A stretch of DNA of 64,000 nt from Candidatus Tayloriibacteriota bacterium. Its GTDB lineage: Bacteria; Patescibacteriota; Minisyncoccia; Phycocordibacterales; UBA10002. The notes under the pieces were generated by a model, which saw only the letters and a program-made list of their open reading frames with translations, was not told the DNA's origin and searched no databases. The position numbers were made by a program, and so were the translations under genes. Shown here piece after piece: positions 1 through 20,168 of this stretch; the stretch's first letter is position 1, and every line of letters starts with the position of its first letter. The DNA lies in NCBI GenBank assembly GCA_009694955.1, contig SIBZ01000002.1, forward strand, positions 1,418 through 65,417, given 5' to 3'.

Positions 1-153
1 GAACTTCACGGCGTCGCATCCCGCCTCTTTCGCCACATCGATAAGTTTCTTCGCCATCTCCACGCTCCCATTATGGTTGATGCCGATTTCGCCCACAATA
101 AAGCACGGGTTTCCGTGTCCTACTTTTTTCCCTCCGATTGATGCGCTTCCCAT
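1..153 (-). CDS. Nonulosonate (sialic-acid-type) synthase, NeuB family; N-terminal 51 codons only, gene runs off the left edge
   Basis: Reverse-strand ATG at 153. The hand translation is MGSASIGGKKVGHGNPCFIVGEIGINHNGSVEMAKKLIDVAKEAGCDAVKF. It aligns with the N-terminus of the complete NeuB paralog at 12804-13853 ([37 protein letters not shown]). Confidence 0.8.
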   Translation of the reverse strand, partial: MGSASIGGKKVGHGNPCFIVGEIGINHNGSVEMAKKLIDVAKEAGCDAVKF

Positions 154-196
154 AGTACTATGTTTATGAATAAGACTGTTATAGTATATATAATTA

Positions 197-381
197 AGAA
201 CTCATTTCAAAACCCTATCGCAATCCAAAGATTCGTGGTATTCGAGGAAAAAATGGTGCAGACGAGGGAGGTGTAGCGAGCTACTCCGACTGAGAATAAG
301 CAATTTTTTACCGAATACCGAGAATTGACGATGCGAAATGGCTTCGAAAAGCCTGCCATGGTAGGTTTTGAAATGAGTTCT
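197..381. repeat. Inverted-repeat-bounded element E1 (18-bp perfect arms, 149-nt interior) in the neuB'/gmhA divergent spacer
   Basis: AGAACTCATTTCAAAACC (197-214) is the exact reverse complement of GGTTTTGAAATGAGTTCT (364-381). The interior shares collinear blocks with E2 at 13858-14075. Confidence 0.65.
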
Positions 382-406
382 ATTATCGGACTACAAAGTA
401 ACACAT

Positions 407-982
407 ATGCACACGGCTGTCGAAACATATCTCACGAATGCCTCTCTTGCCCTGAAAGTAGCGAGTGAGGAAAAAGGGGTTATTACACGGACGGAGGAAG
501 CGATTACGCGTATTGCGCGCTGTTTTCAAGACGGCGGGACGCTCCTCATCGCGGGAAACGGCGGAAGCGCTGCGGACGCGGAGCATTTCGCCACCGAATT
601 TACCGGCCGGTTTATGAAGGAGCGCAAAGCGCGTCCCGCCATCTCACTCGCCTCGTCGACATCTATGCTTACGGCGTGGAGCAACGACCACAATTTCGAA
701 GATGTCTTCGCGAGGCAGATTGAGGCGTTCGGAAAAGCGGGAGACGTGTTTATCGGCATTTCCACCAGCGGAAACTCGAAGAATATCATCCGTGCCGTAT
801 CGAAGGCGAAGACCCTCGGGCTTACCAGCATTACCCTCCTCGGAAACTCCGGTGGAGAATTGCAAGGACTCGCGGACATCACGATTGCGGTACAGGACAC
901 GCGCACGTCCCATATCCAGGAGGTGCAAATTGCGCTGATTCATTGCATCTGCCAGGAAGTGGAGAAAACCTTTACGGAGTAA
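407..982 (+). CDS. gmhA: D-sedoheptulose-7-phosphate isomerase (SIS domain, GmhA type)
   Basis: ATG at 407, 191 aa. Carries the GmhA signature LLIAGNGGSAADAEHFATEF and the second SIS motif GISTSGNSKNI. Confidence 0.85.
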   Translation: MHTAVETYLTNASLALKVASEEKGVITRTEEAITRIARCFQDGGTLLIAGNGGSAADAEHFATEFTGRFMKERKARPAISLASSTSMLTAWSNDHNFEDVFARQIEAFGKAGDVFIGISTSGNSKNIIRAVSKAKTLGLTSITLLGNSGGELQGLADITIAVQDTRTSHIQEVQIALIHCICQEVEKTFTE

Positions 983-996
983 CTTAAGACTCATCT

Positions 997-1587
997 ATGA
1001 ACGAAACACCTGCACCGGAAATAGCCGCACTCGCGCGAACCATCAGCGCCGTTATTTTTGACGTGGACGGGGTTATGACGAACAACCAAGTCTGGCAAGG
1101 CTTCCCACATAAGGTAAAGGTGCGAAGCTACTACGACGGTCAGGGAATCTCGCTCCTGCGGGCAATCGGCGTCCGGGTTGCATTCGTTACCAACGAAAAA
1201 GACGACCACGCGGTCGCCATCACGGAAATTGTCGAGAAACTGAACAAACTCCCCTCTTCACAAAGCGAGTCGAACCCCAAGGGGTGGCCCCTCGTCCGAC
1301 TTTTTACCGGTATGGGCGGAGCGAAAAAAGTCGAGGCTGCCAAACTCTTCGCCGGCGAACTTGGTATCACCGCATCAGAGTGCGCGGCGATGGGCGACGA
1401 CCTTGTCGACATCCCGCTCCTTGACTTCGTCTCGCTCCGAGCTTCGCCAGCACAGGCCGAAGAGGTCGTAAAACGGCGTTGCCAGTTCGTCTCCCGCCGG
1501 GAAGGCGGGAATGGAGCCATCAGGGACTTCGCGAACTTCATCCTTGAAGCGCGCGGTATCGACCCTACGACACTTCCCTTTCAATAG
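997..1587 (+). CDS. HAD-superfamily phosphatase, KdsC / ulosonate-phosphate phosphatase family
   Basis: ATG at 997, 196 aa. Has the HAD motif I FDVDGVMT, then DGQGISLL...VAFVTNE and a C-terminal GDDLVDIPLL...GGNGAIRDF, as in KdsC/KDN-9-P phosphatases. Confidence 0.8.
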   Translation: MNETPAPEIAALARTISAVIFDVDGVMTNNQVWQGFPHKVKVRSYYDGQGISLLRAIGVRVAFVTNEKDDHAVAITEIVEKLNKLPSSQSESNPKGWPLVRLFTGMGGAKKVEAAKLFAGELGITASECAAMGDDLVDIPLLDFVSLRASPAQAEEVVKRRCQFVSRREGGNGAIRDFANFILEARGIDPTTLPFQ

Positions 1588-1640
1588 TAGCCACGTCTTT
1601 GCACGCAAGTGTCCCTACCCTTGGGGCGCCTGTCTTTTTG

Positions 1641-2399
1641 TTACCACGCGCTCTTACCGCCGTCCGCGGTAATGTTGGCTCCCGTGATGAACGAGGAAGC
1701 GTCGGAACAGAGAAACTGCATCACGCCGTTATATTCCTCCGGCTGTGCCATCCGTCCGAGCATGTTACTCTCGCCGAATCGTTTGACGAAATCTTCCGGC
1801 ATTTTCGGATTCAGGACACCTCCGGGAGAAAAGGCATTGACGCGGATGCCATGCATGCCAAGCTGGGCAGCCATAGAGCGGGTGAGCCCGAGTACGCCGG
1901 TCTTGGAAGTAATATAGGCGGGAGATTTATACTTCCCTTCTGTGTTGTACACACGATGGTCGTGCGCGATGTTCGACACTTCGGAAGCGACGTTCACGAT
2001 GGAACCCTTCTTTTGTCTTTTCATATACGGCACCACCGCTTTGATGCAGATAAACATACCGGTCAGGTTGGTATCGAGTTCTTGCCTCCACAGCTCGACA
2101 GGATAGTCTTCAACCGGTACGAATTGCTTTTTTGATGCTTCGCTCCCCACAGCCGGATTCATCGCGGCATTGTTGATGAGCGCGTCGATACGCCCGAACT
2201 TCTGGTGCGCTTCTCTTACCGCCTTTTGAACGGCTTCTTCGTCGCAAATATCAACCGCCGTTCCCGCTTTGCTGTTTTTGTCAAAGACGACAACCTCTGC
2301 GCCGGCCTCACTCAGGGCCTTTACGTACTCTGCGCCGAGAAAACCGTTTCCCCCGGTCAAGATAAGTACCTTTCCTTCGATATCAAATATATTTTTCAT
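1641..2399 (-). CDS. Short-chain dehydrogenase/reductase (SDR)
   Basis: ATG at 2399 (MKNIFDIEGKVLILTGGNGFLG), chosen over the track start at 2462. It makes an ATGA overlap with the stop of the upstream gene. Has the TGGxGxxG Rossmann motif, YxxxK (YITSK) and NNAA. Paralog of 14078-14908. Confidence 0.85.
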   Translation of the reverse strand: MKNIFDIEGKVLILTGGNGFLGAEYVKALSEAGAEVVVFDKNSKAGTAVDICDEEAVQKAVREAHQKFGRIDALINNAAMNPAVGSEASKKQFVPVEDYPVELWRQELDTNLTGMFICIKAVVPYMKRQKKGSIVNVASEVSNIAHDHRVYNTEGKYKSPAYITSKTGVLGLTRSMAAQLGMHGIRVNAFSPGGVLNPKMPEDFVKRFGESNMLGRMAQPEEYNGVMQFLCSDASSFITGANITADGGKSAW

Positions 2400-3205
2400 A
2401 TCAGTGCCGTTAAAAGCGAAAGTTGCTTTTTGGCGTCCGAGAGATACTCCTCGCCACGCCACGCTTGCATAATGATTGTACCACCAAAGTGAATCTCTTG
2501 AAGCGCGCGCAGTGTCTCTTTGTACGGCGCGTCTCCTGTACCGAGCAGTACCGACTGCGCGCTTCCCTTTTTCCGGTCCTTTGCGTGCACGCCAAAAATA
2601 CGTTTGCCGAAAAACCGAATATCGCCGGGAACATCGAACCCGTAGGAAGTCGCATTACCGATATCGTAGTAGACGCCGACGGCATCCGAAGAAAAACTGT
2701 CGAGAAAGGCCGAGAGCTCCGCCCTCGGCATCTCCGTTTCAAATCCGATACGGACATTTCGCGCCATAAGTGTGGGGAGTACGTTTCGTATATGCGAGAC
2801 AATCTCTTCTTTTTCCGCACCGCTCTTCGGCGCGTTCCCCTCAAGAAGCGGGATGAGAATAAGTTTCTCCGACGTGGTTTCAGCCGAATCGATAAGCATA
2901 CGGAGTATTTCGACTGAACGCTTCGCGTCAGCACCGGTAAACCGGTATTTCATATAGTAGTCGGCGCATATGGAGGAGACGGGTACTCCCGCCTTTTGCG
3001 CCACGATCCCTATCGCCTCCCTGCCGGAAACTGTAAACATCGCGTTTTCTGTAAAGCAAGTGAAGTCAAACAGCCATTCGAGGGAAGTAAATCCGAGTTC
3101 GCGGGCTATCATAAATTCCGCCTCCCACTCTCTGGGTGAAAACTGAAAACGGCCGTCCTCAGACGGCGAAAGACGGCCTTGCAGAATTCCGATAGGGAGT
3201 GTCAC
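2396..3205 (-). CDS. Sugar phosphate isomerase/epimerase, xylose-isomerase-like TIM barrel
   Basis: GTG start at 3205 (no upstream ATG). The N-terminus IGILQGRLSP is typical of this family. 269 aa. Confidence 0.7.
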   Translation of the reverse strand: MTLPIGILQGRLSPSEDGRFQFSPREWEAEFMIARELGFTSLEWLFDFTCFTENAMFTVSGREAIGIVAQKAGVPVSSICADYYMKYRFTGADAKRSVEILRMLIDSAETTSEKLILIPLLEGNAPKSGAEKEEIVSHIRNVLPTLMARNVRIGFETEMPRAELSAFLDSFSSDAVGVYYDIGNATSYGFDVPGDIRFFGKRIFGVHAKDRKKGSAQSVLLGTGDAPYKETLRALQEIHFGGTIIMQAWRGEEYLSDAKKQLSLLTALI

Positions 3206-3214
3206 AGCGTTATG

Positions 3215-4219
3215 CTACTTTGCTTTAAATTGATACGGCGTGGTTCCTGTTGCCTTGCTCCCCGCCTCACGACCCCACTTCTGTATCTGTTTCGCGATAT
3301 CCACACCGACATTCTTACTCCACGTGTTAAGGAGTCGCTCGGTAACCTCGCCCATCTTCCCCGCGCCAATCTGCTTCCCATTCAGGCGCGTCACGGGGAG
3401 CAGGCAGAACGGAGTGCCGGTCATAAACGCCTCGTCGGCATTGTAGACATCATACGGCTCGATATTTTTCTCGATAACCGACAACCGCAATTCCTTACCC
3501 AGTTCGAAGATATAGTCACGGCTTATCCCGCGCAGGATATTTCTTCCTTCAGGCGTAATCACGACGCCGTCTTTGACGATGAAGAAGTTGTCTCCGGTTC
3601 CCTCGGCGATAAACCCGTCCGGGTCAAGGAGAAGCGCCCAATTGTCCTTCCCTTCAAATTGGGAAGCTTCGATGTTCGCCATAAGGTAGTGAATCCTGCT
3701 CCGGTTCTTGACCTTCGGTTCAAGAAGCGAGGCGGGTATCGCCCGCTGGGAAGTGATAACCGCGTTAATACCCGTATCAAACAGATGCCCCATCGAAGCA
3801 ACGGTCCATCGGAGCGGAAAGTCCGCGATAATGACATTGGGACCCTTCGGGGTACCGACGGTATCCTGATAGATACCGAGCAATCCCCGTGTGACGTCAA
3901 TCATAATCCGGTGCTCGTCATCTTTTGCCATCGCGGGTTCGTTCGCCTCGATGGTTCTCATAACCTCCCGCTCCATTTCATCAATGGTCATCTCCAAAGG
4001 AATCCGAACATAGTTCAGAGAAGCATACAGACGCCGTAAGTGTTCACGGAGTTTAAACTGTTTCTTGTTGAATGAACGGGTCATCTCAAAGACCATATCC
4101 CCGAACATCAGCGCGGAATCGTAAATCGAAAGCTTCGCCTCCGACTCGGGAATCAGGACCTTGTTCCACGAAACGAGCCGTCCCGACACTTCTTGTTTTT
4201 TCTTGGTTTCTTTTGGCAT
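3215..4219 (-). CDS. Class IV (BCAT / D-amino-acid type) aminotransferase
   Basis: ATG at 4219, 334 aa. Family blocks EGTGDNFFIVKDGVVITP and EAFMTGT are present. Confidence 0.85.
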   Translation of the reverse strand: MPKETKKKQEVSGRLVSWNKVLIPESEAKLSIYDSALMFGDMVFEMTRSFNKKQFKLREHLRRLYASLNYVRIPLEMTIDEMEREVMRTIEANEPAMAKDDEHRIMIDVTRGLLGIYQDTVGTPKGPNVIIADFPLRWTVASMGHLFDTGINAVITSQRAIPASLLEPKVKNRSRIHYLMANIEASQFEGKDNWALLLDPDGFIAEGTGDNFFIVKDGVVITPEGRNILRGISRDYIFELGKELRLSVIEKNIEPYDVYNADEAFMTGTPFCLLPVTRLNGKQIGAGKMGEVTERLLNTWSKNVGVDIAKQIQKWGREAGSKATGTTPYQFKAK

Positions 4220-4229: not shown

Positions 4230-4928
4230 TTATTTCGTGGCTAATCCTTTTATTGTAAAGAGTGTCTTGCAAAACTCAAGACTCTCATCATCGTCCACCT
4301 CGGACGATTTCCAGAACTCCATCAAAGATATCGCGATGCGTCCGCCAAGGCGATTGTGGTATGTGGATAACACTTCCGGTTTAAAGACATAAATAGACCC
4401 GTTCTCAACAAACTGCTCTCCATACTCCTGTCGCCGTTTCCGGTCCGTAGAGTCGTAATTGACACTGCACAGTTTTCCGTCCCGCTTTGCCCAAATATAA
4501 AAATCTCCTATGTCGGCGCCGGAAAAGAGCGAATCGGCTTTTTCCTTTGTAATCGTCCGGATAGCGTTGTCGATATCAACCGATTCACGCAGGGGCGAGG
4601 TCGCCTGCAGGAAGACCACGTACTCGCAATCCGGAAGTCCCTTTTCTTTAAGATACGCGAGCGCGTGTACCAGCGCATCTTCGGAACTCGCCGTATCGCC
4701 GGAAATGGCGGGAGGACGCACAATCACTTCCGCACCATAGCTTTTTGCCACCGCTCCGATTTCCTCGCTGTCGGTGGAAACGTAGACCTCGTCAACAAGC
4801 GTCGCCTGTTTCGCCTGCTGGATGCTCCACGCGAGGAGCGGACGACCGCAAAAATCGACGATGTTTTTCTTCGGTATGCCTTTTGACCCGCCACGGGCGG
4901 GAATAATGGCGATTACTTTCTTCGGCAT
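4230..4928 (-). CDS. neuA: Acylneuraminate (nonulosonate) cytidylyltransferase, CMP-sugar synthetase
   Basis: ATG at 4928 (MPKKVIAIIPARGGSKGIPKKN), preferred over the track start at 4967. The LQATSPLR motif is present. Confidence 0.85.
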   Translation of the reverse strand: MPKKVIAIIPARGGSKGIPKKNIVDFCGRPLLAWSIQQAKQATLVDEVYVSTDSEEIGAVAKSYGAEVIVRPPAISGDTASSEDALVHALAYLKEKGLPDCEYVVFLQATSPLRESVDIDNAIRTITKEKADSLFSGADIGDFYIWAKRDGKLCSVNYDSTDRKRRQEYGEQFVENGSIYVFKPEVLSTYHNRLGGRIAISLMEFWKSSEVDDDESLEFCKTLFTIKGLATK

Positions 4929-5020: not shown

Positions 5021-6475
5021 CTACTGCGGCTGAGAAAGAGAACTCTTATGCAATTCTTTCGCAAGAGCCGAAACAATATGCTTCACGTTATCGTCCACGC
5101 TGAGCGCCGACCCCACCTTGCCATGAGGAGCGAAATACGCGTCGAAACCAACTCTATCGACACTGACCAGGAAATTAATGAGCTGTTGTTTGGAAAAAGA
5201 ACATCCATCCCGTATGCGTTTGAATGCTTCCCGCGCCGAAACAAAATCCCGCACACGGAATACTCCCGGGCAGTATTGGTACCAAGGATAGCCGAACACC
5301 AGAACGGGTTTCCCGCGAAGCACGCCTTCCCAGCCGGCGGTTCCGCTTCCGGTCGCTACCGCTTTCGCGTGCTTGATGAGCTCAAAGGAATTCGTGCCGA
5401 TGGGCACAACTCGTACATTACCGAGCGCGGCGATTTTCCGGTAATACCCGCGATAGCGGTACTCAAAGAACTTCGTACCGCGCCGACGCCAGAGGAGCGG
5501 GTGTTCTTTTACGTACAGGAACCACCCTTCCGGAAGCGCCGAGGAAAGCATCTCTATCATCAGCAGTTGGTCGACAAACACGCCGGCTTGCGGAGACGAC
5601 GTGCGTTCCGGCTGATAGTGCAGAGCGACGTACACATAGTTCTGCTTGAAATCGGGTGAAGATTCCACGCGCGCATATTCTTTTTTGAGATTGGAGCCGA
5701 GTCTTCTTGCAATGAACCCCGACAACCGTTTGAAGATACTTCCGTCGTAGAGACCGTCCGCGATGCTTCGAAGTTTAATGCGAACTTGTTTCATCCCTCC
5801 ATAGAGCGCGAGGTCGTGTTTGACGTACGGCGGCGTCGCGTCGCCTTTGTTTTCGGCGTGCCGGCTGTAGTAGTCGAGCGTATCTTTCCGCAGGTCGGCC
5901 GGCGAAAAATGCTCGGATTCATTCCGGCGCACCTCGGAAAGAAGCTCTTTCGACCCCTCCTTGTAGTCGTTCATAAGGACAGCACGGTCGGTGCCTTCAA
6001 GAATTGCCTCGAACATAATAGTGCGGATACCGAGCTTGCGGGCAAGCGCGTACAGCACATAATCATATACCGTATGAGGAATGTCCGAATACACGATTGC
6101 GTCCGGTTTGTAGGCGGAAAGCACACCATGCCAGTAGCGTAGAAACTCCGAAAAGAGATGCTTGCGCTCTTCAATGCACAGATGTTCATACTTCTTATGC
6201 ATCATTGTGAGCAGTGTTATTTCCGTTTCGGCAAATTCCGCGAGTAACTCCTCGCCGGGAGGCGGAAAGTTTGCAAAGGAAACTCCTTCTGCCGGTATGC
6301 CGGCGAGCGCATCGTCCACATCGTGACAAATCGTCCCGGGAAACAAGTGCCGGGAGGACTCAAACTCCTCGCGATATCCGGTCCAGTAGACGATATCGTG
6401 ATTCTTCTTGAGCTCCCGCATCACCTCGATAAGCCCGAGTTCTTTCCCCGACCAACTTATGAAAAAAAGACGCAT
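5021..6475 (-). CDS. Capsule_synth-like (KpsC/KpsS-type) putative CMP-ulosonate-dependent glycosyltransferase
   Basis: ATG at 6475, 484 aa. The C-terminal block YVKEHP...ATGSGTAGWEGVLRGKPVLVFG resembles the capsule polysaccharide biosynthesis (KpsS/KpsC) family. Paralog of 18654-20168. Confidence 0.55.
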   Translation of the reverse strand: MRLFFISWSGKELGLIEVMRELKKNHDIVYWTGYREEFESSRHLFPGTICHDVDDALAGIPAEGVSFANFPPPGEELLAEFAETEITLLTMMHKKYEHLCIEERKHLFSEFLRYWHGVLSAYKPDAIVYSDIPHTVYDYVLYALARKLGIRTIMFEAILEGTDRAVLMNDYKEGSKELLSEVRRNESEHFSPADLRKDTLDYYSRHAENKGDATPPYVKHDLALYGGMKQVRIKLRSIADGLYDGSIFKRLSGFIARRLGSNLKKEYARVESSPDFKQNYVYVALHYQPERTSSPQAGVFVDQLLMIEMLSSALPEGWFLYVKEHPLLWRRRGTKFFEYRYRGYYRKIAALGNVRVVPIGTNSFELIKHAKAVATGSGTAGWEGVLRGKPVLVFGYPWYQYCPGVFRVRDFVSAREAFKRIRDGCSFSKQQLINFLVSVDRVGFDAYFAPHGKVGSALSVDDNVKHIVSALAKELHKSSLSQPQ

Positions 6476-12807: not shown

Positions 12808-13853
12808 CCGAGATGATTCCGTTTAAGATGGGTATCCTTTTTAATGAAGCGTTTTGCCCTGCACTTGAGGACTCGTTCGAATTCCGAAGCGAGTATTTCT
12901 CCCGTACCCGGGCGCTTCACCCAGACATTGTCGTAGCTGAACGATTCTCCTTCTCTGATATCCCGGATGGAAACGACCGTTGCGTACGCGAAATCAATGG
13001 TCGGCTGTTCCTCCTTGAGAATTGTCTTCTTTCCGCCTAGCGCCTTCCAGATGGCGCCGGTTCCTTTGATGAGTTCCTGAAGTTCACCCGGGTCTATAGA
13101 AATGGGCACATCGGGACCGGGCCACTTTTTGTCGGAGGTAAAATGCTTTTCGAATATCGAACCGCGGAGCGCCGTAGCGCCATAACAGGTATAGTTCAAG
13201 AGAGAGTGGTCGCTGAGTCCATACACCGCGTCGGGAAATTCTTTCGAAAGCTCGAGCATGGCATCGAGACGCACCTTTTCGTACGGGGTCGGATAGAGCG
13301 ACGTACAGTGCAGAAGAGCGAACGGGATGTTCGATGCACGGAGGATGCTGACGCTCTTCCGTATTGACGCGATATCATTCATCCCCGTGCTCAAAATGAC
13401 CGGTTTCCCGAATGAAGCAATATGCCTCAGGAGCGGGTAGTTGTTGCACTCACCGGAACCGATTTTGTAGGCTTGAACGCCGAGCTTCTCGAGCCGGTTT
13501 GCCGCCGCGCGCGAAAACGGAGTGGAGAGATAGAGCATACCGAGCTTTTCGACATAGTCCTTCAGCACCTTGTCTTCTTTCTCGGAAAGAGCGCACCTCT
13601 CCATAATATCCCAAATGGATTCCTCTGCGTTCCCGGGGATGACTTTTTTCGCCTCGGGAGTCATCTCATCCTCTATTACATGGCACTGGAATTTGACGCA
13701 TTCCGCTCCGGCTTCATACGCGTCTTTCACCATACGCTTCGCTTTCGCGAGGCTTCCCTCGTGATTAATGCCGATTTCGGGAATAACAAAAGGAGGAAAC
13801 TCCTTTCCTATTTTTCGTGTACCTATTTGTATGTAGGGGGCTTTGTTCGCCAT
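12804..13853 (-). CDS. neuB: Nonulosonate synthase (N-acetylneuraminate/legionaminate synthase family)
   Basis: ATG at 13853 (MANKAPYIQIG...). The track start at 13871 is a TTG. EIGINHEG motif present. The C-terminal SAF/antifreeze-like part reads RDIREGESFSYDNVWVKRPG. Confidence 0.9.
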   Translation of the reverse strand: MANKAPYIQIGTRKIGKEFPPFVIPEIGINHEGSLAKAKRMVKDAYEAGAECVKFQCHVIEDEMTPEAKKVIPGNAEESIWDIMERCALSEKEDKVLKDYVEKLGMLYLSTPFSRAAANRLEKLGVQAYKIGSGECNNYPLLRHIASFGKPVILSTGMNDIASIRKSVSILRASNIPFALLHCTSLYPTPYEKVRLDAMLELSKEFPDAVYGLSDHSLLNYTCYGATALRGSIFEKHFTSDKKWPGPDVPISIDPGELQELIKGTGAIWKALGGKKTILKEEQPTIDFAYATVVSIRDIREGESFSYDNVWVKRPGTGEILASEFERVLKCRAKRFIKKDTHLKRNHLG

Positions 13854-14077: not shown

Positions 14078-14908
14078 TTATCTCGCCGTCCAACCACCAT
14101 CCACCGTGAGCGACGCGCCGGTCATATAGGAAGACGCCTCCGACGCGAGAAACAGCACGGCTCCGTTGTAGTCGGTGTTCTGTGCCATCCGCCCAAGTAT
14201 GGTGCGCTTCTCATACGCGTTCACGAACTCCGCACCTTGGCCGGCTTCCACTCCGCCGAGGACGAGTGTATTCACCCGGATACCCGTCTTCTCAAATCCG
14301 CAGTACTCGGCAAGCCACTTCGTAAACCCGAGCATACCCGACTTTGCAACGCTGTACCCAACCGGCTTGTAGTATATATCCCCGTTCTTTCGCTTGAAGT
14401 CGTACATCGCCTGTTCGGGAGAAACGACTCCATACACGGAAGAAATGTTGATGATGGAGCCATTCTGTTTCTTCGCGTTCCGGTAAGCGCGTATAAACTC
14501 CTGCGATACGAAGAGCGCGGACGTAAGATGTGAGGCATTCATTTCCCTCCACACATCCTCCGGATAGTCTTCAAACAAACCGCTCTCTTCCTTCGGCGCA
14601 TTCGGGTGAGTTGCGCGTCCCGCATTATTGATGAGCACGGTAGGAGCATCCTTGAAGGTGTTCTTGATTTCTGCAAACGCCCGGACAACCTCGCTCTTCT
14701 TCGTGAGGTCGACAGCGACACAGAGCACTTGAGCGCCGTCATTTTGCAATTGCTGTATCTTCGGGTGTACTTCTTTTTTGACATCCAAGACTGCGACAAA
14801 CGCCCCCGCTTCCACGAGGATCTTCACGTATTCACTGCCAAGGTCGCCCTGACCTCCGGTCACGACGGCAATTGTACCCTTTAGAGAAAACAGTTCTTTG
14901 TTGGTCAT
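14078..14908 (-). CDS. Short-chain dehydrogenase/reductase (SDR)
   Basis: ATG at 14908, 276 aa. VVTGGQGDLGS, NNAG and YSVAK motifs present. Paralog of 1641-2399. Confidence 0.85.
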   Translation of the reverse strand: MTNKELFSLKGTIAVVTGGQGDLGSEYVKILVEAGAFVAVLDVKKEVHPKIQQLQNDGAQVLCVAVDLTKKSEVVRAFAEIKNTFKDAPTVLINNAGRATHPNAPKEESGLFEDYPEDVWREMNASHLTSALFVSQEFIRAYRNAKKQNGSIINISSVYGVVSPEQAMYDFKRKNGDIYYKPVGYSVAKSGMLGFTKWLAEYCGFEKTGIRVNTLVLGGVEAGQGAEFVNAYEKRTILGRMAQNTDYNGAVLFLASEASSYMTGASLTVDGGWTAR

Positions 14909-14909
14909 A

Positions 14910-15656
14910 TTATTGAAACGCGGTGATGTCCCGCTCGATTTCCTCCCGGTGTTTGCAGATAAGCTCGCCGAGGATGAAATCTTCCGGCGAATCGAGGTCC
15001 ACCGAACGCCAGCGCGGGACCTCTACTCCAACCAATTTTCCGCCCAAAAAGTTCCCCGACGCAAGCAAAGTGCTCACTCTACTTACGTACACCATCGAGC
15101 CGTTTTCGGCGACGGTATGCGCAAGTTCTTGTCTATTGGTGGAGGCGAGAAAGGCGGGAGAAGTGGTAAGCGTGAGCGCGCCTTCGGGACTGTGTACGAA
15201 CACGCGAGGCTCCACTCTGGAGACGGTGATTGCGGAATCCGCCTGTTCTTTCAAGAGAAGTTCAATTGTCGCGTCGATGTCTTGTGCCGTCCGGAGCGGA
15301 GAGGTTGGTTGCAGGAGGACGACGTAGTTTGGCGCGTATCCTTCGCGTTCTTGCAACAACTTTAGCGAATGCGCCACCGCATCGAATACCTTGCTCGTAT
15401 CTTGCGCGAGCTCTAGGGGGCGCAGGAACGGCACCTCTGCTCCGAATTCTTTCGCGAGCTTGGCGATCTCTTCCGATTCGGTCGAGACGATGATGCGGGA
15501 AAGTTTTCGTGATTTCTTCGCCTCCCGAATCGTATGGCTGATGAGTGGTTCACCGCAAAAAAGCCGAGTATTCTTCCCCGGTATTCCCTTACTTCCCCCG
15601 CGGGCGGGGATAATGCCAAGAAACGTAGGTGTCGTGTTCATCATGTCGAAATCCAT
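14910..15656 (-). CDS. neuA: Acylneuraminate (nonulosonate) cytidylyltransferase, second copy
   Basis: ATG at 15656, with in-frame ATGs at 15644 and 15641 also possible. GIIPARGGSKGIPGKN and LLQPTSPLR motifs present. Confidence 0.85.
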   Translation of the reverse strand: MDFDMMNTTPTFLGIIPARGGSKGIPGKNTRLFCGEPLISHTIREAKKSRKLSRIIVSTESEEIAKLAKEFGAEVPFLRPLELAQDTSKVFDAVAHSLKLLQEREGYAPNYVVLLQPTSPLRTAQDIDATIELLLKEQADSAITVSRVEPRVFVHSPEGALTLTTSPAFLASTNRQELAHTVAENGSMVYVSRVSTLLASGNFLGGKLVGVEVPRWRSVDLDSPEDFILGELICKHREEIERDITAFQ

Positions 15657-15669: not shown

Positions 15670-16896
15670 CTACTCTTGATACTTCAGCTTCCAGGCTCCT
15701 TTTTCTTTTTCCCACAAGTGAGGCGCGCGGAACGAATCGATGGTGTCGGTAAATTCTTTTTCCGAAAGCCCGATGTAGTCCAGAAATTCCGGAAAGTACC
15801 GTTTGGGAAATTCTCCGTCGAAACGCTTGATGAGTGTCGATCCTTCTTCCTTCGTAATGTGCTCGTTGCGTATCTCCTGCGAGGCATCGTACCGCGCCCT
15901 CCCGAAACCGAATTTGATAAACGTCGTGTAATAGAAAAAGCCGTCGGTCTTGTCGTCGATGCTGTTGTACTTCGAGTAGGTTCCCTCGGTACGCACCGGA
16001 TTCGCCTCAAAACCCGTATGTTTGACCGCGTAATAGTAGCACTCCTGCGGTACCCACTTCAGATAGTAACCGAGGTAATGGAACTCTATGTTGTGTTGCC
16101 TGAGTATCTCTGGATCGGCCGGAAGGAACGGGGCAAGGTCTCCATACGTCAGTCCTTCGTTAAAATAGTCAGCAAGCGATTTCCCTCCCAGAAAGACGGT
16201 CTCGGGCGGGTCGGTCGGCTTCGCGTAATCAAGACGGTATCCCTTCTCGTCCTTCGAACCCCCCATCACGAACTTCTTTTGGCTGACGGACACTTTGTCG
16301 CCGTACTCGCCTTGATTCTCACCGTAGAAGATGAGCTTGATGCCGAAACGCGCGGCAACTTTCGGAGCGAACGTCTTTTGTCCGAGAATGAACGGCTGAA
16401 ACGGGTGAAGCAGATTTAAAAACGCATTGCGCGCCAGCAAGCGGTGTATCTTCCCGTTTGGAGAAAACAGGTAATTATCGAACCCGCCGACGTGTATCCA
16501 GTTCTGAAAATTTTTCCAACCGATGTCGGTATACAGATGCGGAGTCCAGGTCACGGTGAGCGGATGCATTCCGTACTTGTATTTCAGGACGTGCGAGGCG
16601 TACGCGCTGTCCTTACCTCCGCTCCCTGGAACAAGACAGTCGAACGAACCGTCGGTGGAACGGTACTGCGCAAGAAGTTCGAGAAGTTCTTTCTCGCGCG
16701 CCTGCCAATCAATCACTCCATTCTTACGGGACTCAAAGAACCGGCACGCGGCACAAATACCATCCGCGTCAAACTTGATATAGTCATGCTTCATCTCGGG
16801 CGTATGTTTGAACTCGTTGCACGCGAGAGGTTGCGCGTTCGAGGCAAGACATCGTCCGCAGAATTTAATTTTTTCCGGCAGTCCGTAGGGAGGCAT
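15670..16896 (-). CDS. N-acetyl sugar amidotransferase (WbpG/WbuX/PseA type, PP-loop ATPase)
   Basis: ATG at 16896 (MPPYGLPEKIKFCGRC). The track extension to 17088 was rejected. Has an N-terminal Cys-rich ribbon (CGRC...CAAC) and the PP-loop SGGKDS. Lies next to hisH/hisF paralogs. Confidence 0.8.
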   Translation of the reverse strand: MPPYGLPEKIKFCGRCLASNAQPLACNEFKHTPEMKHDYIKFDADGICAACRFFESRKNGVIDWQAREKELLELLAQYRSTDGSFDCLVPGSGGKDSAYASHVLKYKYGMHPLTVTWTPHLYTDIGWKNFQNWIHVGGFDNYLFSPNGKIHRLLARNAFLNLLHPFQPFILGQKTFAPKVAARFGIKLIFYGENQGEYGDKVSVSQKKFVMGGSKDEKGYRLDYAKPTDPPETVFLGGKSLADYFNEGLTYGDLAPFLPADPEILRQHNIEFHYLGYYLKWVPQECYYYAVKHTGFEANPVRTEGTYSKYNSIDDKTDGFFYYTTFIKFGFGRARYDASQEIRNEHITKEEGSTLIKRFDGEFPKRYFPEFLDYIGLSEKEFTDTIDSFRAPHLWEKEKGAWKLKYQE

Positions 16897-16982
16897 AGAA
16901 TAGAAATTTCTAATGAAGAGGTGGCTACAGTATATACAACTTTGCGGCACTTGAAAAAGTGCCCTCAAGAAAGGAGCGGATT

Positions 16983-17615
16983 CTAGATAAGCTGGGTGAA
17001 ATTCCGTATAAGCTGGAGTCCCGCTTCCCCGCTCTTTTCGGGATGGAACTGGCAACCATAGATATTCCCCTTCCGGATGACTGAGCAAAACTCTGTTCCG
17101 CCATACGACGAGAGGCCCAGTATATTTTCTTTCCGGCTCGGCTTGAAGATATAGGAATGAGTAAAGTACATACGTGGCTTCTCTCCGGGAACGAGGATAC
17201 TTCCCTCCCAGGATGTCTCCGTGCCTGGATAGACCTCATTCCATCCAACTTCGGGTATTTTTTCCTTGACTGCATCCGCATCAAACCGGACAACTTCCCC
17301 TTCGATAATACCGAGCCCGTCAAAGACTCCGAATTCGTGCCCTTGCTCGAGCATGAGCTGTGCTCCGAGACAGATGCCGAGCATCGGACGATTATGCACC
17401 GCGACATGTTGTACCGCCTCCGTAAGATTGCGGAGCTTCAAGCCGCGCATTCCCGCTTCGAACGAACCGACTCCCGGAAGAATCACTGCATCGGACACCC
17501 GAATCTCTTCCGCATCCTCGGAAATGATTGCATCGAAACCAAGGTGCGCGAAAGCCTTCTTCAGGCTCTGCAGATTTCCGACTCCGTAATCAACGATGGT
17601 TATTCTAGAAGCCAT
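16983..17615 (-). CDS. hisH: Glutamine amidotransferase subunit, imidazole-glycerol-phosphate-synthase HisH family (glycan-cluster paralog)
   Basis: ATG at 17615, 210 aa. ITIVDYGVGNL, PGVGSF and GICLGAQ (catalytic Cys) motifs present. Confidence 0.85.
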   Translation of the reverse strand: MASRITIVDYGVGNLQSLKKAFAHLGFDAIISEDAEEIRVSDAVILPGVGSFEAGMRGLKLRNLTEAVQHVAVHNRPMLGICLGAQLMLEQGHEFGVFDGLGIIEGEVVRFDADAVKEKIPEVGWNEVYPGTETSWEGSILVPGEKPRMYFTHSYIFKPSRKENILGLSSYGGTEFCSVIRKGNIYGCQFHPEKSGEAGLQLIRNFTQLI

Positions 17616-17646
17616 ACAAATTCCTAATTACCCGATACACTCGTTT

Positions 17647-18420
17647 TTAATGAAATTGGGGGATGCGCCGTATGGCAACACCTTTTGCGTCCAAATACTC
17701 CTTGACGCTCCCTATCGTACAATCGTCATAGTGAAATATCGAAGATACCGCCACCGCATCGGCTTTCCCTTTACTGATGACTTCTTCCATATGCGCCGCG
17801 TTCCCGGCCCCGCCGTGGGCAATCACCGGAATAGGCGCCCACGACGCAATCGCCGACGTAAGTTTTGTGTCGTACCCTTTCCTCGTCCCGTCTTGGTCGA
17901 TAGAGGTGAGGAGTATCTCACCGACGCCGAGCCCGACCGCCTGTTTCGCCCACTCGATTGCGTCGAGACCGGTGCTTTCCCTGCCTCCATCGGTATACAC
18001 CTCCCATTTCCCCTCACTTTTCTTCTTCGCTTCGATATAGAGGACGATGCACTGCGAGCCGAACTCCAGAGCCGCTTCGCGCAAAAATTCCGGACGAGAA
18101 ACAGCGTACGTGTTTATCGCCACCTTATCGGCTCCGACACGGAGCGCGTTTTTGATGTCCGAGAGCGAACGGATACCCCCTCCGACAGTGATAGGGATAA
18201 AAATATCTTCGGAAACACTTTTGAGCAGTTCAAAATCGAAATTGCGCTGATACAGGCTTGCCACGATATCGAGATACATAAGTTCATCAGCTCCCTGCCT
18301 GTAATAGCGTACCGCGAGCTCTTTCGGGTCACCCACAATCCGGAGCGCTTCGGTATGAACCGGCTTCACCACATTCGGTCCTTTGATATGGAGTGTTGGA
18401 ATAATTCGGATATTTTTCAT
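17647..18420 (-). CDS. hisF: Cyclase subunit, HisF family (glycan-cluster paralog)
   Basis: ATG at 18420, 257 aa. IIPTLHIKG...GADELMYLDI...TVGGGIRS, typical of a HisF (beta/alpha)8 barrel. Confidence 0.85.
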   Translation of the reverse strand: MKNIRIIPTLHIKGPNVVKPVHTEALRIVGDPKELAVRYYRQGADELMYLDIVASLYQRNFDFELLKSVSEDIFIPITVGGGIRSLSDIKNALRVGADKVAINTYAVSRPEFLREAALEFGSQCIVLYIEAKKKSEGKWEVYTDGGRESTGLDAIEWAKQAVGLGVGEILLTSIDQDGTRKGYDTKLTSAIASWAPIPVIAHGGAGNAAHMEEVISKGKADAVAVSSIFHYDDCTIGSVKEYLDAKGVAIRRIPQFH

Positions 18421-18653
18421 GTCTGAAACGCCGGCTCTCGGCCTATCTTTTTCCGCACATTGTTTCTATAATGGGGCATTCTTAGGACGACCTTTCCGAA
18501 TATATATCGGATGCAAAACCCGCCTTCCCAAAAAGAATCTGCGACCGTATCGGACTATAGTAGCTTGTCGGCTTAGAAAAGAAAACTGGTGTTTTTCTTT
18601 TTCGCCTCCACAGTGCTCATAACTCCGATTAGCGGGCGGTAGTTACAGCATAT

Positions 18654-20168
18654 ATGCCTCATACACGAAAGCCAAAAATCTGTTTCTTTCTCCAAAGGAG
18701 CTACGCCTTTACTGGCCACGCGCTTGCCGAGCTCTTGAAGGAAAAGTACGGCGTGGAAGAGTTTTGCGCGTACACAGGGCTCCGAAAAGTACACGATGCT
18801 CTCAAGCGGAAACACACGGTTTCCTACAGCACGCTTCTCCTCGACGAGGACGTGCACAACCGCTATACGGACGAGAAACTCGACCTGCAGTATCTTACCT
18901 GGCTTGAAAAGGAATATGGTATTCCGAACGTCTGGCCGTATCTGTGCCTCGACCGTGAAATAATGTCCAACCAGGCAAAGCGCGAGTATCCGTACAATAC
19001 ACCGAGATACACACACGAAGAAATGCTCCGCATTCTCCAAGTGACCGCCAAAGCCGTCATTTCATTTCTTGATACCGAGAAACCGGACGCGGTTATCTTT
19101 TCCACCGTGGGTAACGTTCCCGGCTACCTCCTGTATGAAATTGCGAAGAAAAGAGGCATCAAGGTGCTCTATATTCTCACGGCGCCGATCCGCGAACGGA
19201 TTGTGGTAAGTGAGACGTACGACTCCTTCAGCGACACAAACACGCTTTTCAAAGAACGACTCGCGAGCGGAAAGAAGGATACATACTATGAGGAAGCGAA
19301 GAAGGTGCTCGAGGACTTCCGAAACGCGCCTGTCCCCTATGACCCACGCCGGACACCTGAAGCGCAACAGGTGAACCGACGGAAACAACTCCGTTTTCTC
19401 GCGCCGAAAAACTTTCTTCGTTCGATTTCTTGGTTCGTACGGCTTACGTACGAATACGCATTCGGCACGACAAGAAACGACTATACCTCGGTAAACCCGT
19501 TTCATTACGCGCTCGACCATATACGGAGGAAGGCACGGAACCTCTGTGGCGCGTCCGACCTGTACGACGCCTTTATCCCCGAAGAGCCGTACGCCTATTT
19601 CGCGCTCACGTACGAGCCGGAAATCAGCCTGCTTCTCCTCGCTCCGTTCGCCCAGGATCAAATTAATTGCATACGGCACGCGGCGCGTTCACTTCCCGTC
19701 GGATGGAAACTGTATGTAAAGGAGCACCCGGAAATGGCGCACTTCCGTCCCCGTTCGTATTACAAGGAGCTAAAGAAAATCCCCAACGTGAAGTTCATTT
19801 CCCCCACCATCGGAGGGTTCACGCTCCTTCGTCACGCACAGCTTGTCTTTACCATAACTGGTTCGGCGGCATGGGAAGGTCTTGTTTTCAAAAAACCGGC
19901 TATCGTGTTCGGCAATCAATTTTATAACGTGCTCTCGATGGTGAAGAAATGCGCCGAGCCGGAAACACTTCCGTTTCTCGTTAAGCAACAGCTCGAAGAG
20001 TTTTCCCACGACGAAGAAGAACTGCTTTGCTACACCGCCGCCCTTATCGAGGATTCGGCCTTTCTCCCCTTCATTTATTTATGGGAGGAAGAATTCGACG
20101 AAGAGAAGAAAAAACGAGGACTCGCGCCTCTTGCCGACCTTTTGGCAAAAAAGCTCGGCCTCGCGTAA
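18654..20168 (+). CDS. Capsule_synth-like (KpsC/KpsS-type) putative glycosyltransferase, second copy
   Basis: ATG at 18654, 504 aa. YVKEHPEM...ITGSAAWEGLVFKKPAIVFG aligns with the paralog at 5021-6475. Confidence 0.55.
   Translation: MPHTRKPKICFFLQRSYAFTGHALAELLKEKYGVEEFCAYTGLRKVHDALKRKHTVSYSTLLLDEDVHNRYTDEKLDLQYLTWLEKEYGIPNVWPYLCLDREIMSNQAKREYPYNTPRYTHEEMLRILQVTAKAVISFLDTEKPDAVIFSTVGNVPGYLLYEIAKKRGIKVLYILTAPIRERIVVSETYDSFSDTNTLFKERLASGKKDTYYEEAKKVLEDFRNAPVPYDPRRTPEAQQVNRRKQLRFLAPKNFLRSISWFVRLTYEYAFGTTRNDYTSVNPFHYALDHIRRKARNLCGASDLYDAFIPEEPYAYFALTYEPEISLLLLAPFAQDQINCIRHAARSLPVGWKLYVKEHPEMAHFRPRSYYKELKKIPNVKFISPTIGGFTLLRHAQLVFTITGSAAWEGLVFKKPAIVFGNQFYNVLSMVKKCAEPETLPFLVKQQLEEFSHDEEELLCYTAALIEDSAFLPFIYLWEEEFDEEKKKRGLAPLADLLAKKLGLA

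Follow-up and report, generated by a model that had tools for sequence, protein, structure and literature searches.

The first 20,168 bases of a 64-kb stretch of contig SIBZ01000002.1 (assembly GCA_009694955.1, positions 1,418 to 65,417 of the forward strand), from a groundwater bacterium with a tiny genome, a Candidatus Tayloriibacteriota member of the candidate phyla radiation (CPR), probably encode two biochemically different routes to nonulosonic sugars activated with cytidine monophosphate (CMP). We refer to the whole 64-kb stretch as the window and to the two groups of genes, a mostly co-directional array within a 64-kb glycan island, as set 1 and set 2. Set 1 would be a phosphosugar route (isomerase, synthase, phosphatase, CMP activation), because its synthase NeuB1 shares motifs with the synthase of 3-deoxy-D-glycero-D-galacto-nonulosonic acid 9-phosphate (Kdn-9-P) and because of the neighbours and fusions of the NeuB1 clade. 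Set 2 looks, by its gene content, like a nucleotide-sugar route of neuraminic or legionaminic acid type that yields an acetamidino sugar. A first-pass annotation of this DNA had proposed two separate ulosonic-acid pathways that each have an activating enzyme and a candidate transferase of their own, and the differences between the two synthases, between the two cytidylyltransferases and among related genomes support that proposal. Sialic-acid-like sugars influence how hosts, phages and neighbouring cells recognise a cell, and little is known about the surface chemistry of CPR bacteria, which live attached to other cells.

Two sets of genes in one array

We listed and translated the open reading frames (ORFs) of the window, ran profile searches and compared the paired proteins by blastp. 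Lengths are in amino acids (aa), and loci used for comparison carry L numbers.

Set 1 and adjoining genes:
1..153, minus strand: NeuB1, the N-terminal 51 codons of a 288-aa NeuB-family synthase without a SAF domain; the remainder lies left of the window, at 65-931 of contig L001
407..982, plus strand: GmhA-like SIS sugar-phosphate isomerase, divergent from NeuB1 (TIGR00441 196.3 bits, cutoff 209.45)
997..1587, plus strand: HAD-IIIA phosphatase resembling KdsC and Kdn-9-P phosphatase (profile matches below cutoffs)
1641..2399, minus strand: SDR1, classical short-chain dehydrogenase (SDR), proposed oxidising step (best with generic SDR models)
2396..3205, minus strand: AP_endonuc_2 (xylose-isomerase-like) TIM-barrel sugar(-phosphate) isomerase/epimerase (PF01261 82.3 bits)
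3215..4219, minus strand: AT4, class IV aminotransferase resembling branched-chain aminotransferases (BCATs), proposed sugar transaminase (PF01063)
4230..4928, minus strand: CTP1, predicted CMP-ulosonic acid synthetase of set 1 (PF02348; TIGR03584 127.2 bits, below cutoff)
5021..6475, minus strand: CapS1, GT-B protein with a KpsC-like nucleotide-sugar domain, candidate set-1 CMP-sugar transferase (PF05159 34.5 bits)
6541..7326, minus strand: class I S-adenosylmethionine-dependent methyltransferase adjoining CapS1 (profile; 60% ortholog in the same position in L092)
7339..9144, minus strand: MsbA/PglK/HepA-like ABC exporter, candidate flippase (profile; 50-60% orthologs in L008 and L092)

Set 2 and adjoining genes:
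9217..10248, minus strand: PseB/FnlA-like UDP-HexNAc 4,6-dehydratase, Polysacc_synt_2 (TIGR03589 295.6 bits, cutoff 407.75; 68% ortholog in L008)
10266..11579, minus strand: AT3, class III aminotransferase resembling glutamate-1-semialdehyde aminomutase (PRK06209 395.9 bits, below cutoff)
11656..12807, minus strand: NeuC, hydrolysing UDP-GlcNAc 2-epimerase (TIGR03568 385.7 bits, above the cutoff of 235.9)
12804..13853, minus strand: NeuB2, full-length NeuB with SAF domain (TIGR03569 360.8 bits, below cutoff)
14078..14908, minus strand: SDR2, PtmA-like (PRK09186 156.5 bits and NF050062, PtmA, 116.9 bits, both below cutoff)
14910..15656, minus strand: CTP2, predicted CMP-nonulosonate synthetase of set 2 (TIGR03584 146.7 bits, below cutoff)
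15670..16896, minus strand: WbuX-family N-acetyl sugar amidotransferase (TIGR03573 340.8 bits, above the cutoff of 203.2)
16983..17615, minus strand: HisH/WbuY-like glutaminase subunit (TIGR01855 202.9 bits, above the cutoff of 105.4)
17647..18420, minus strand: HisF/WbuZ-like cyclase-fold subunit (TIGR00735 302.2 bits, above the cutoff of 294.55)
18654..20168, plus strand: CapS2, Capsule_synth-like, candidate set-2 transferase (PF05159 30.0 bits; fold taken from CapS1)
20201..21055, plus strand: FkbM-family methyltransferase adjoining CapS2 (PF05050 63.8 bits, TIGR01444 96.9 bits)

As the first-pass annotation had said, four gene families occur twice within 20 kb; ORFs, profiles and blastp place all eight genes at the positions it gave, each as an intact ORF except NeuB1, which is cut at the left edge. 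Its view that the pairs are diverged and not recent copies is likewise borne out, since identities of 28-39% mark them as old paralogs: NeuB1/NeuB2 31.6% over 282 aa (E 5e-40), SDR1/SDR2 36.4% over 275 aa (E 2e-43), CTP1/CTP2 39.4% over 213 aa (E 1e-44) and CapS1/CapS2 28.4% over 306 aa (E 3e-22). Both NeuBs match TIGR03569 and TIGR03586, both cytidylyltransferases match TIGR03584 and PF02348, and both SDRs are classical SDRs by profile search. The description of the SDR pair as distinctive holds for SDR2, which is PtmA-like (PRK09186, 156 bits), but not for SDR1, for which generic SDR models give the highest scores.

From 18420 down to 1641 all genes lie on the minus strand with short gaps (a single base between the SDR2 start at 14908 and the CTP2 stop at 14910), in the order HisF/WbuZ-like, HisH, WbuX, CTP2, SDR2, NeuB2, NeuC, AT3, PseB-like, ABC exporter, methyltransferase, CapS1, CTP1, AT4, TIM barrel, SDR1. 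The plus strand carries the SIS and HAD genes, facing NeuB1, and CapS2 with its FkbM methyltransferase (18654-21055). The rest of the left-edge neuB gene was recovered from Logan contig L001, which we found by an exact-match look-up of the SIS protein adjoining NeuB1; this contig equals window positions 1-9176 with 0 mismatches, reaches 778 bases further left and yields the full 288-aa NeuB1. A chimeric assembly was considered and rejected on the basis of the uniform G+C, the identical independent contig L001 and the syntenic relatives. G+C is flat across the window (0.51-0.54) and the window proteins co-occur on one 87.9-kb public contig, so there is no sign of a chimera.

Beyond the four homologous pairs, the region holds two functional pairs of non-homologous proteins. 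Each CapS adjoins a methyltransferase, of class I (6541-7326) in one case and of the FkbM family (20201-21055) in the other, and the two aminotransferases are of different fold types, AT4 of type IV (3215-4219) and AT3 of type I/class III (10266-11579).

The two synthases differ at substrate positions

Both NeuBs align with Neisseria meningitidis (Nm) NeuB (1xuu) across the whole barrel and keep EIGINH, (S/G)(D/G)H and ERH (Nm E25, H215, H236); the metal and catalytic residues of the NeuB/nonulosonate synthase family (PF03102) are present in NeuB1 and NeuB2 alike. NeuB2, which matches 1xuu with 427 bits and 57% identity, keeps TPF (F112), the YKIGSGECNNYP segment (E134) and a SAF domain with WVKRPG (R314). 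R314 of the NeuB SAF domain is reported to be essential (PMC8208679). NeuB1 stops after the TIM barrel, without SAF domain and without R314, and has W at the F112 position and S at the E134 position. The N. meningitidis-type combination of SAF domain, R314, F112 and E134 is thus found in NeuB2 only.

Using a translation of the codon-optimised gene in the supplement of PMC6200933, we compared both proteins with the Kdn-9-P synthase of Prymnesium parvum, which is reported to show an absolute preference for mannose-6-phosphate among seven sugars tested (PMC6200933). This enzyme, like NeuB1, has no SAF domain. The two share KFQKR, S-x-WD (W for F112), G/A-S-x-S (S for E134), SGH and W-x-G-x-D-x-AASLEP, five motifs that are missing from NeuB, PseI, SpsE and the short Leptospira NeuB. 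NeuB1 and NeuB2 share 35.6% and 30.2% of their residues, respectively, with the P. parvum synthase. In its sequence features and its phosphatase partner, NeuB1 resembles the phosphosugar-dependent synthases of P. parvum, Bacteroides thetaiotaomicron and animal NANS type, and NeuB1 and NeuB2 are, judged by these motif states, not redundant. The outcome named beforehand as speaking against two pathways was that the paralogs would share one specificity class and conserved substrate residues; instead, the substrate positions and the SAF domain differ between NeuB1 and NeuB2, and the nearest relatives of the two cytidylyltransferases differ as well. SAF-less 'environmental' NeuBs, including ones with the F112W change, appear without assigned function in the accessible part of a large-scale phylogeny (PMC8208679).

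Activating enzymes and candidate transferases

CTP1 shares 36.7% identity with the CMP-Kdn synthetase of P. parvum, and CTP2 shares 29.6%. CTP1 finds its best PDB match in 9t4z 'PpNeuA' (114 bits), which we take, from its name and length, to be the Prymnesium enzyme. For CTP2, bacterial CMP-N-acetylneuraminic acid (CMP-Neu5Ac) synthetases lead, and 9t4z is the weakest of five CMP-sialic-acid-synthetase matches (58.6 bits). By their PDB matches both proteins clearly fall in the CMP-sialic-acid synthetase group, far above KdsB; for CTP1 the scores are 114 bits to the sialic-acid-type synthetase versus 40 bits to KdsB. Neither reaches the PseF cutoff (TIGR03584, 205.7 bits).

Both CapS proteins exceed the PF05159 gathering score of 20, and their translations read VKEHP in CapS1 and YVKEHP in CapS2. 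The CapS1 family is common in CPR genomes, where its members are annotated as hypothetical. With a CapS profile of 45 members, in which CapS2 is one row, KpsC is the only PDB match (E 2.5e-9); the alignment covers the C-terminal domain only, about 80 residues, and sets the near-invariant VKEHP of the family against VKVHP of KpsC. An HP motif is common to CMP-Kdo (CMP-3-deoxy-D-manno-octulosonic acid) and CMP-sialic acid glycosyltransferases. The AlphaFold model of CapS1 (pLDDT 89.5, pTM 0.88) has a GT-B fold and matches UDP-GlcNAc 2-epimerases, glycosyltransferase family 1 (GT1) enzymes and KpsC in Foldseek; KpsC gives the best TM-score, 0.31/0.42, among the top 50 matches. The CapS proteins therefore show the features of the KpsC/KpsS-type family (PF05159, GT107) in Pfam membership and HP motif and, through the CapS1 model, a predicted GT-B fold. 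The invariant Q288-P289-E290 of the family is a candidate equivalent of the catalytic Asp160 site of KpsC.

Isomerase, phosphatase and proposed tailoring enzymes of set 1

Profiles confirm the link, drawn in the first-pass annotation, of one set to GmhA, a KdsC-type phosphatase, a TIM-barrel protein and a class IV aminotransferase. The SIS protein is ~50% identical to Campylobacter jejuni GmhA (1tk9) and, by visual reading of its alignment to 1tk9 and 5i01, keeps the GmhA H/E/Q/H tetrad. The HAD protein is KdsC-like by profile but no certified member of the KdsC or Kdn-9-P phosphatase families: it scores 72.1 bits with KdsC (NF007019, cutoff 208), 71.7 with Kdn-9-P phosphatase (NF058599, cutoff 180) and 71.3 with TIGR01670 (cutoff 106.95), its best-matching stretch to KdsC-type models comprises residues 107-187 only, and it is 28% identical to the B. 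thetaiotaomicron Kdn-9-P phosphatase.

SDR1 has a 77% identical ortholog in the Taylorbacteria locus L092. The TIM-barrel protein matches L-ribulose-5-phosphate 3-epimerase models weakly, and a search for its homologs gave 84 single-domain environmental proteins without informative names or fusions. The link between NeuB and AP_endonuc_2/COG1082 has a precedent in Serratia marcescens, where a fused NeuB-COG1082 gene is required for a capsule that contains Kdn (PMC9000132).

AT4 scores below the cutoffs of BCAT models, and its nearest PDB entries are archaeal BCATs (178 bits). That it is a stray housekeeping BCAT was considered and rejected: 62-78% orthologs share this operon context in three further phyla or lineages, in one case beside an acetyltransferase, and lie inside the NeuB1-type operons L004, L048 and L094. 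In L094 a hexapeptide acetyltransferase directly follows AT4, which argues, by an oxidise, transaminate, acetylate logic, that AT4 may aminate a sugar.

The set-1 core in other genomes

A database search for NeuB1 defines a clade of ~289-aa proteins that are 64-83% identical among the matches listed. Scanning one genome per species, we obtained at least 600 pattern matches, of which at least 595 were confirmed (52-69% identity). The clade occurs in CPR groups, Acidobacteria, Melainabacteria, Chloroflexi, Myxococcota, Nitrospira, Planctomycetes, Verrucomicrobia and Actinobacteria including Streptomyces aureus. All ORFs up to 10 kb from the NeuB1-type gene were clustered at 83 loci, and homologues of window proteins were counted. 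The commonest neighbour is the KdsC-like HAD (38/83), usually immediately downstream, followed by CTP_transf_3 (33/83), a PtmA-like SDR (32/83), the GmhA-like SIS (27/83) and the TIM barrel (16/83); class IV and class III aminotransferases occur at three and two of the 83 loci, respectively.

Two kinds of fusion tie the steps together. Myxococcota encode a 385-aa HAD-SIS fusion with a KdsC-like half (92 bits) and a GmhA-like half (198-208 bits), at L034 14385-15542 (a Polyangiaceae metagenome-assembled genome) and also at L038 and L070, inside NeuB1-type operons; no GmhB model is among the matches of its profile search. In the Doudnabacteria-like L093 (8262-9449), a 395-aa CTP_transf_3-Hydrolase_3 (HAD) fusion lies directly upstream of SIS and a short, NeuB1-type synthase gene (NeuB-short). 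Its layout recalls vertebrate CMP-sialic acid synthetase, whose C-terminal domain is phosphatase-like. As Rosetta stones, the HAD-SIS and CTP-HAD fusions link the steps of set 1.

Operons with an AT4 ortholog include NeuB-HAD-AT4(62%)-TIM-SDR-SDR-CTP in Nitrospirae, CTP(61%)-AT4(66%)-NeuB in Saccharibacteria and CTP(66%)-AT4(78%)-hexapeptide acetyltransferase-SDR-SIS-NeuB(70%)-HAD(61%) in the parcubacterial L094, the last of which indicates, by its gene content, a chemistry of oxidation, amination and acetylation. A plasmid search with NeuB1 gave a Methylomagnum plasmid with a split transketolase-AT3(46%)-SDR-NeuB-HAD and a Hymenobacter match in an uninformative context. Two NeuB-type genes lie within ~20 kb at 11/83 loci and two cytidylyltransferases at 9/83, so that the two-set architecture, recurring in other phyla, is not unique to the window. 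Together, the neighbourhoods indicate that the core of set 1 is a free-standing, widely distributed module. As far as we found, this widespread NeuB1-clade pathway has no characterisation in the literature, in these bacteria or elsewhere.

Several loci vary the module. Two or more NeuB-short copies, the extra one 52-59% identical to NeuB1, are found at L015, L069 and L085 (Chloroflexi) and L062 (Acidimicrobiia), and the second NeuB-type gene of L030 (Chloroflexi) is more distant (46%); all four Chloroflexi loci (L015, L030, L069, L085) also have two cytidylyltransferase genes. An Acidobacteria quartet (L036, L042, L058, L066, at ~10001-14500) consists of NeuB-short, HAD, an acetolactate-synthase-like thiamine pyrophosphate (TPP) enzyme (374 bits to TIGR00118, below cutoff) and an FkbM methyltransferase, and often adjoins RfbH-like and CDP-sugar genes. 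A TPP enzyme beside the synthase hints at C-branched or chain-extended ulosonic acids. In Melainabacteria/Gastranaerophilales (L011, L013, L014, L017, L025, L032 and others), NeuB-short and HAD sit between histidine kinase, small membrane protein and aspartokinase/TPR genes, with no homologue of the window cytidylyltransferases within 10 kb, as if the pair had a housekeeping function.

Set 2 as a proposed acetamidino route

WbuX, HisH and HisF, three adjacent components, correspond by profile to an acetamidino-forming amidotransferase system and predict an acetamidino group on the set-2 sugar; the HisF/WbuZ-like protein also reaches 272.8 bits with the WbuZ model TIGR03572, just under its cutoff of 299.7. 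The mechanically called WbuX ORF (15670-17088) has a TTG start and overlaps HisH by ~100 bases, and its profile match begins at residue 75. Translation more likely begins at the ATG at 16896, 86 bases from HisH.

The first-pass annotation had linked NeuC, the 4,6-dehydratase and the amidotransferase trio to one set, here that of NeuB2, which stands, but its legionaminic/pseudaminic label is one reading only, a Neu5Ac/Neu5Am-type product being also possible. NeuC and NeuB2 could give Neu5Ac directly from UDP-GlcNAc; with the PseB-like dehydratase and an aminotransferase acting upstream, they would give a legionaminic-type 5,7-diamino sugar. Acetimidoyl-Neu has been seen as a CMP-sugar in C. jejuni. 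The Legionella pneumophila Sg6/12 cluster for 4-epi-Leg5Am7Ac, a 5-acetamidino-7-acetamido nonulosonate, places a class III aminotransferase next to a cytidylyltransferase and also holds HisF/HisH and an 'LPS biosynthesis protein'. The assignment of AT3 to set 2 is uncertain, and AT3 may serve either set. An analogy between PtmF and the SIS protein was dropped, PtmF being a 326-aa oxidoreductase in a Plesiomonas table.

Proposed routes

Gene content, homology, motif states, fusions and synteny are observed; from them we infer all substrates, all products and the reaction order of the scheme that follows. In set 1, the GmhA-like SIS would supply a manno-configured aldose phosphate, most simply mannose-6-phosphate, which the SAF-less NeuB1 would condense with phosphoenolpyruvate (PEP) to a 9-phospho-nonulosonate of Kdn-9-P type, and the KdsC-like HAD would strip the phosphate. 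SDR1, the TIM barrel and AT4 may oxidise a hydroxyl, epimerise the adjacent position and swap in an amine, with the phosphorylated sugar, the free acid or the CMP-sugar as their substrate; if they act at C5, neuraminic acid would result. CTP1 would then form the CMP-sugar and CapS1 transfer it, and the methyltransferase adjoining CapS1 may modify the product further. The logic would be equivalent to that of KdsD-KdsA-KdsC-KdsB and analogous to the Bacteroides/Prymnesium Kdn route.

In set 2, NeuC, possibly after the PseB-like dehydratase and an aminotransferase, would release an N-acetylmannosamine (ManNAc)-type sugar from UDP-GlcNAc or a derivative. NeuB2 would condense it with PEP, CTP2 activate the product, WbuX/HisH/HisF turn an N-acetyl into an acetamidino group and CapS2 transfer the sugar. 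The ABC exporter would flip a lipid-linked glycan, and a Wzy_C-TPR protein encoded left of the window would ligate it to an acceptor.

Alternative explanations

Several observations weigh against two dedicated routes with this chemistry. Neither synthase reaches the TIGR03569 cutoff of 399.65 bits (NeuB1 251.7, NeuB2 360.8), so neither can be filed as a Neu5Ac synthase on that model, and NeuB1 shares only 35.6% of its residues with the characterised Kdn-9-P synthase. The HAD and SIS proteins score below their curated cutoffs, and SIS looks, in sequence, like a genuine sedoheptulose-7-phosphate isomerase, a poor fit to mannose-6-phosphate supply. Scanning predicted genes across the window turned up no N-acetyltransferase of LbH/hexapeptide or GNAT type, and the window's only DegT aminotransferase, at 41576-42733, lies ~28 kb from the set-2 synthase; with none among the genes scanned and a class III aminotransferase adjoining instead of DegT, set 2 is not a canonical legionaminic/pseudaminic pathway. 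AT3 homologs (46-47%) stand beside NeuB1-type modules in Methylomagnum (L090) and Doudnabacteria (L093), and since they travel with these modules the two sets may share enzymes. In Giovannonibacteria, locus L008 combines two NeuBs with a single cytidylyltransferase and a single CapS, which leaves room for sharing between routes.

Set 1 might instead lead to a ten-carbon (C10) acid, which we consider unlikely though not negligible: a true GmhA would convert sedoheptulose-7-phosphate to D-glycero-D-manno-heptose-7-phosphate, NeuB1 would form a 3-deoxy-decaulosonate 10-phosphate, and HAD and CTP1 would follow. The SIS protein fits this well, with ~50% identity to C. jejuni GmhA, 196 bits to TIGR00441 (cutoff 209) and the GmhA catalytic and metal residues kept by alignment reading, as do its fusion to a KdsC-like phosphatase in Myxococcota and the GmhA-like genes that accompany NeuB1-type genes at 27/83 loci, including ones in monoderm CPR, Chloroflexi and Actinobacteria. 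Such lineages have no expected need for lipopolysaccharide (LPS) heptose; nucleotide-heptose synthesis could fall to another, weak SIS of the window, which has a transaldolase and an HddA-like kinase as neighbours. CMP-activated C10 ulosonic acids have been detected in Magnetospirillum in a report whose accessible part proposes no genes, but the sugar described there has two N-acetyl groups and is Leg/Pse-like, unlike what this module would make. The related P. parvum synthase, moreover, prefers mannose-6-phosphate absolutely, heptose-7-phosphate not being among the sugars tested, and NeuB1-type genes (52-66%) occur without SIS within 10 kb in Saccharibacteria and Streptomyces aureus, where GmhA is not expected. 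Extended to hundreds of genomes, and again improbable, the GmhA-like/SAF-less NeuB/KdsC-like triad would turn heptose-7-phosphate into a C10 acid, followed by fold-type-IV amination, CMP activation and KpsC-like transfer. If true, this would give a genetic basis for 'higher-carbon' CMP-ulosonic acids and make AT4 the first known fold-type-IV sugar aminotransferase.

That the two sets form one branched pathway or share steps, with AT3, SDR2 or the PseB-like enzyme serving the NeuB1 product or either cytidylyltransferase serving both, and thus fewer than two dedicated lines, we hold to be quite improbable. Sharing would agree with the co-directional genes with short gaps from 18420 to 1641, with the NeuB1-type modules of L090 and L093, whose neighbours include AT3 homologs (46-47%) and a CapS2-like gene, and with the composition of L008 (two NeuBs, one CTP, one CapS); however, the window holds two complete triplets of synthase, cytidylyltransferase and transferase at 28-39% identity, the set-1 module stands alone in many genomes, and the nearest characterised relatives of CTP1 and CTP2 differ. 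Simple redundancy, with old paralogs whose common product would be one nonulosonic acid such as Neu5Ac or a legionaminic acid, is very improbable. Both NeuBs do score best with TIGR03569 and both cytidylyltransferases with TIGR03584, but the substrate-contact positions of the synthases differ, the SAF domain and R314 are confined to NeuB2, an isomerase and a phosphatase belong to set 1 only, and NeuC and the amidotransferase trio to set 2 only. We give hardly any credence to a Kdo-like eight-carbon acid made from arabinose-5-phosphate, with NeuB1 replacing KdsA and CapS1 as Kdo transferase. The succession of isomerase, synthase, KdsC-like phosphatase and CTP_transf_3 mirrors the Kdo pathway, and CapS is detectably related only to the Kdo transferase KpsC; against this, the isomerase is GmhA-like, without the CBS domains of KdsD/KpsF and with no KdsD/KpsF model among its matches, CTP1 is of sialic-acid type (114 bits versus 40 for KdsB), and the related Kdn-9-P synthase does not accept arabinose-5-phosphate (PMC6200933).

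Relation to known systems

The closest likeness to the proposed phosphosugar route of set 1 is the CMP-Kdn pathway of B. thetaiotaomicron and P. parvum (PMC6200933), with the same phosphosugar and PEP, a KdsC-family phosphatase and CMP activation. The P. parvum synthase is SAF-less with the motifs of NeuB1, and its CMP-Kdn synthetase is the nearest characterised relative of CTP1; identities, however, are low (synthase 35.6%, synthetase 36.7%, phosphatase 28%), and the host here is a CPR bacterium. Since set 1 adds a GmhA-like isomerase, an SDR, a TIM barrel and AT4, it probably ends in a sugar other than plain Kdn. The proposed steps follow the same logic as the Kdo pathway (KdsD-KdsA-KdsC-KdsB), whereas the synthase is of the NeuB and not the KdsA (DAHP-synthase) family and the isomerase is GmhA-like instead of KdsD. 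CapS1 and CapS2 share PF05159 with the beta-Kdo transferases KpsC/KpsS (GT107) and align VKEHP with VKVHP of KpsC, but only ~80 CapS residues align by sequence.

Set 2 shares a NeuC-type 2-epimerase, a SAF-bearing NeuB and a WbuX/HisH/HisF-type amidotransferase with the acetamidino legionaminic pathways of C. jejuni (LegG/LegI/LegF/PtmA/PtmG) and L. pneumophila (O-antigen). A PtmA-like SDR adjoins the cytidylyltransferase in both, and a class III aminotransferase is associated with the cytidylyltransferase as in L. pneumophila Sg6/12. It differs in having no LegC/DegT, no LegH/PglD/PseH acetyltransferase among the window genes scanned and no PtmE/PgmL GDP-sugar branch; its dehydratase is PseB-like, below cutoff, and NeuB2 is equally compatible with Neu5Ac synthesis. 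C. jejuni and Leptospira reportedly carry several diverged NeuB/NeuA paralogs (Neu5Ac, Pse, Leg), each for a different nonulosonic acid, and the window is alike in this. To our knowledge, their routes all start from nucleotide sugars, whereas one route here would be phosphosugar-based and the candidate transferases are KpsC-like; no Maf- or GT42/52/80-like transferase candidate was seen among the window genes scanned. The Serratia marcescens KL1/KL2 Kdn locus, compared by its description in PMC9000132, also ties NeuB to COG1082/AP_endonuc_2, fused there and adjacent here, and has NeuA. There the fusion is 2241 bp (~746 aa), and the accessible part of the paper mentions no aminotransferase or SIS gene.

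Already known are the phosphosugar Kdn route, the NeuC/NeuB amidino nucleotide-sugar route and organisms with multiple nonulosonates. What is new is that a single CPR genome combines the two routes, that a class IV aminotransferase belongs to the proposed tailoring trio, that KpsC-like proteins emerge as transferase candidates and that the set-1 core is recognised as a widespread pathway, for which we found no characterisation in the literature. Our literature search found no paper linking nonulosonic acids with CPR/Patescibacteria, nor NeuB with phosphoheptose isomerase. The Taylorbacteria island probably specifies a glycan with two different acidic nine-carbon sugars. Neighbourhood and fusions now tie the set-1 clade to a phosphatase, an isomerase and a cytidylyltransferase, and we model it as a bacterial counterpart of the animal/Bacteroides phosphosugar route with variable tailoring by aminotransferases, TPP enzymes and methyltransferases. 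CapS would be a candidate family of CMP-sugar transferases among proteins annotated as hypothetical.

Left flank, syntenic CPR loci and the rest of the island

A 74-kb ENA contig with the same genes continues to the left with NeuB1, a 723-aa Wzy_C-TPR protein, two unknown proteins, MurB and SecA, in this order. A ~725-aa Wzy_C + TPR protein (O-antigen-ligase/PglL-like) adjoins NeuB-short in three CPR lineages (L092 12539-14728; L094 14019-16247). Type IV pilus genes follow it in L094, which suggests that the glycan is destined for protein (pilin?) O-glycosylation.

In Giovannonibacteria, L008 reads NeuC-NeuB(SAF)-PseB-like(68%)-ABC(50%)-CapS(44%)-MT-CTP-NeuB-short-Wzy_C/TPR...MurB...SecA (MT, methyltransferase), its NeuB(SAF) and NeuB2 sharing only 33% identity. 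Locus L092 of Taylorbacteria resembles it, with TIM(66%), SDR(77%), SIS(65%), a small cupin and HAD in addition. Since both are syntenic with the window, the island appears to be inherited within Parcubacteria, varying by blocks. The L092 cupin (10872-11300), a 142-aa Cupin_2 protein between NeuB-short and HAD at a locus without an aminotransferase, could be a small phosphomannose-isomerase-like or keto-sugar isomerase.

Scans of the window with Rfam and for tRNAs gave no matches, and a promoter scan of the window gave fewer sites than in shuffles; one 10/12 match upstream of NeuB1 (210-183) is worth noting. The remaining 43 kb encode two GDP-mannose dehydratases, a C-methyltransferase, GT2, GT4 and PMT_2 proteins, an HddA-like kinase, a DegT aminotransferase, a second weak SIS, a transaldolase, a B12 radical-SAM enzyme and an AsnB-like protein. 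Between the nonulosonate and GDP-sugar blocks, 22318-26356 (minus strand) carries three adjacent genes, for a membrane protein of DUF4956, a protein with a VTC domain and a protein of 829 aa in which a right-handed beta-helix comes after a CotH-kinase-like domain. A heptose-like module at 38528-44133 (minus strand) comprises the HddA-like GHMP kinase, an FAD oxidoreductase, a GT2, a DegT/PseC-like aminotransferase (262 bits, below cutoff), the weak SIS (gmhA 45 bits) and the transaldolase, which scores above its equivalog cutoff. Of the two GDP-mannose 4,6-dehydratase paralogs (26674-29822 and 50763-51794), one adjoins an aldo-keto reductase and a sugar C-methyltransferase (Methyltransf_13/14), and dehydratase and C-methyltransferase together suggest a C-methylated 6-deoxy sugar.

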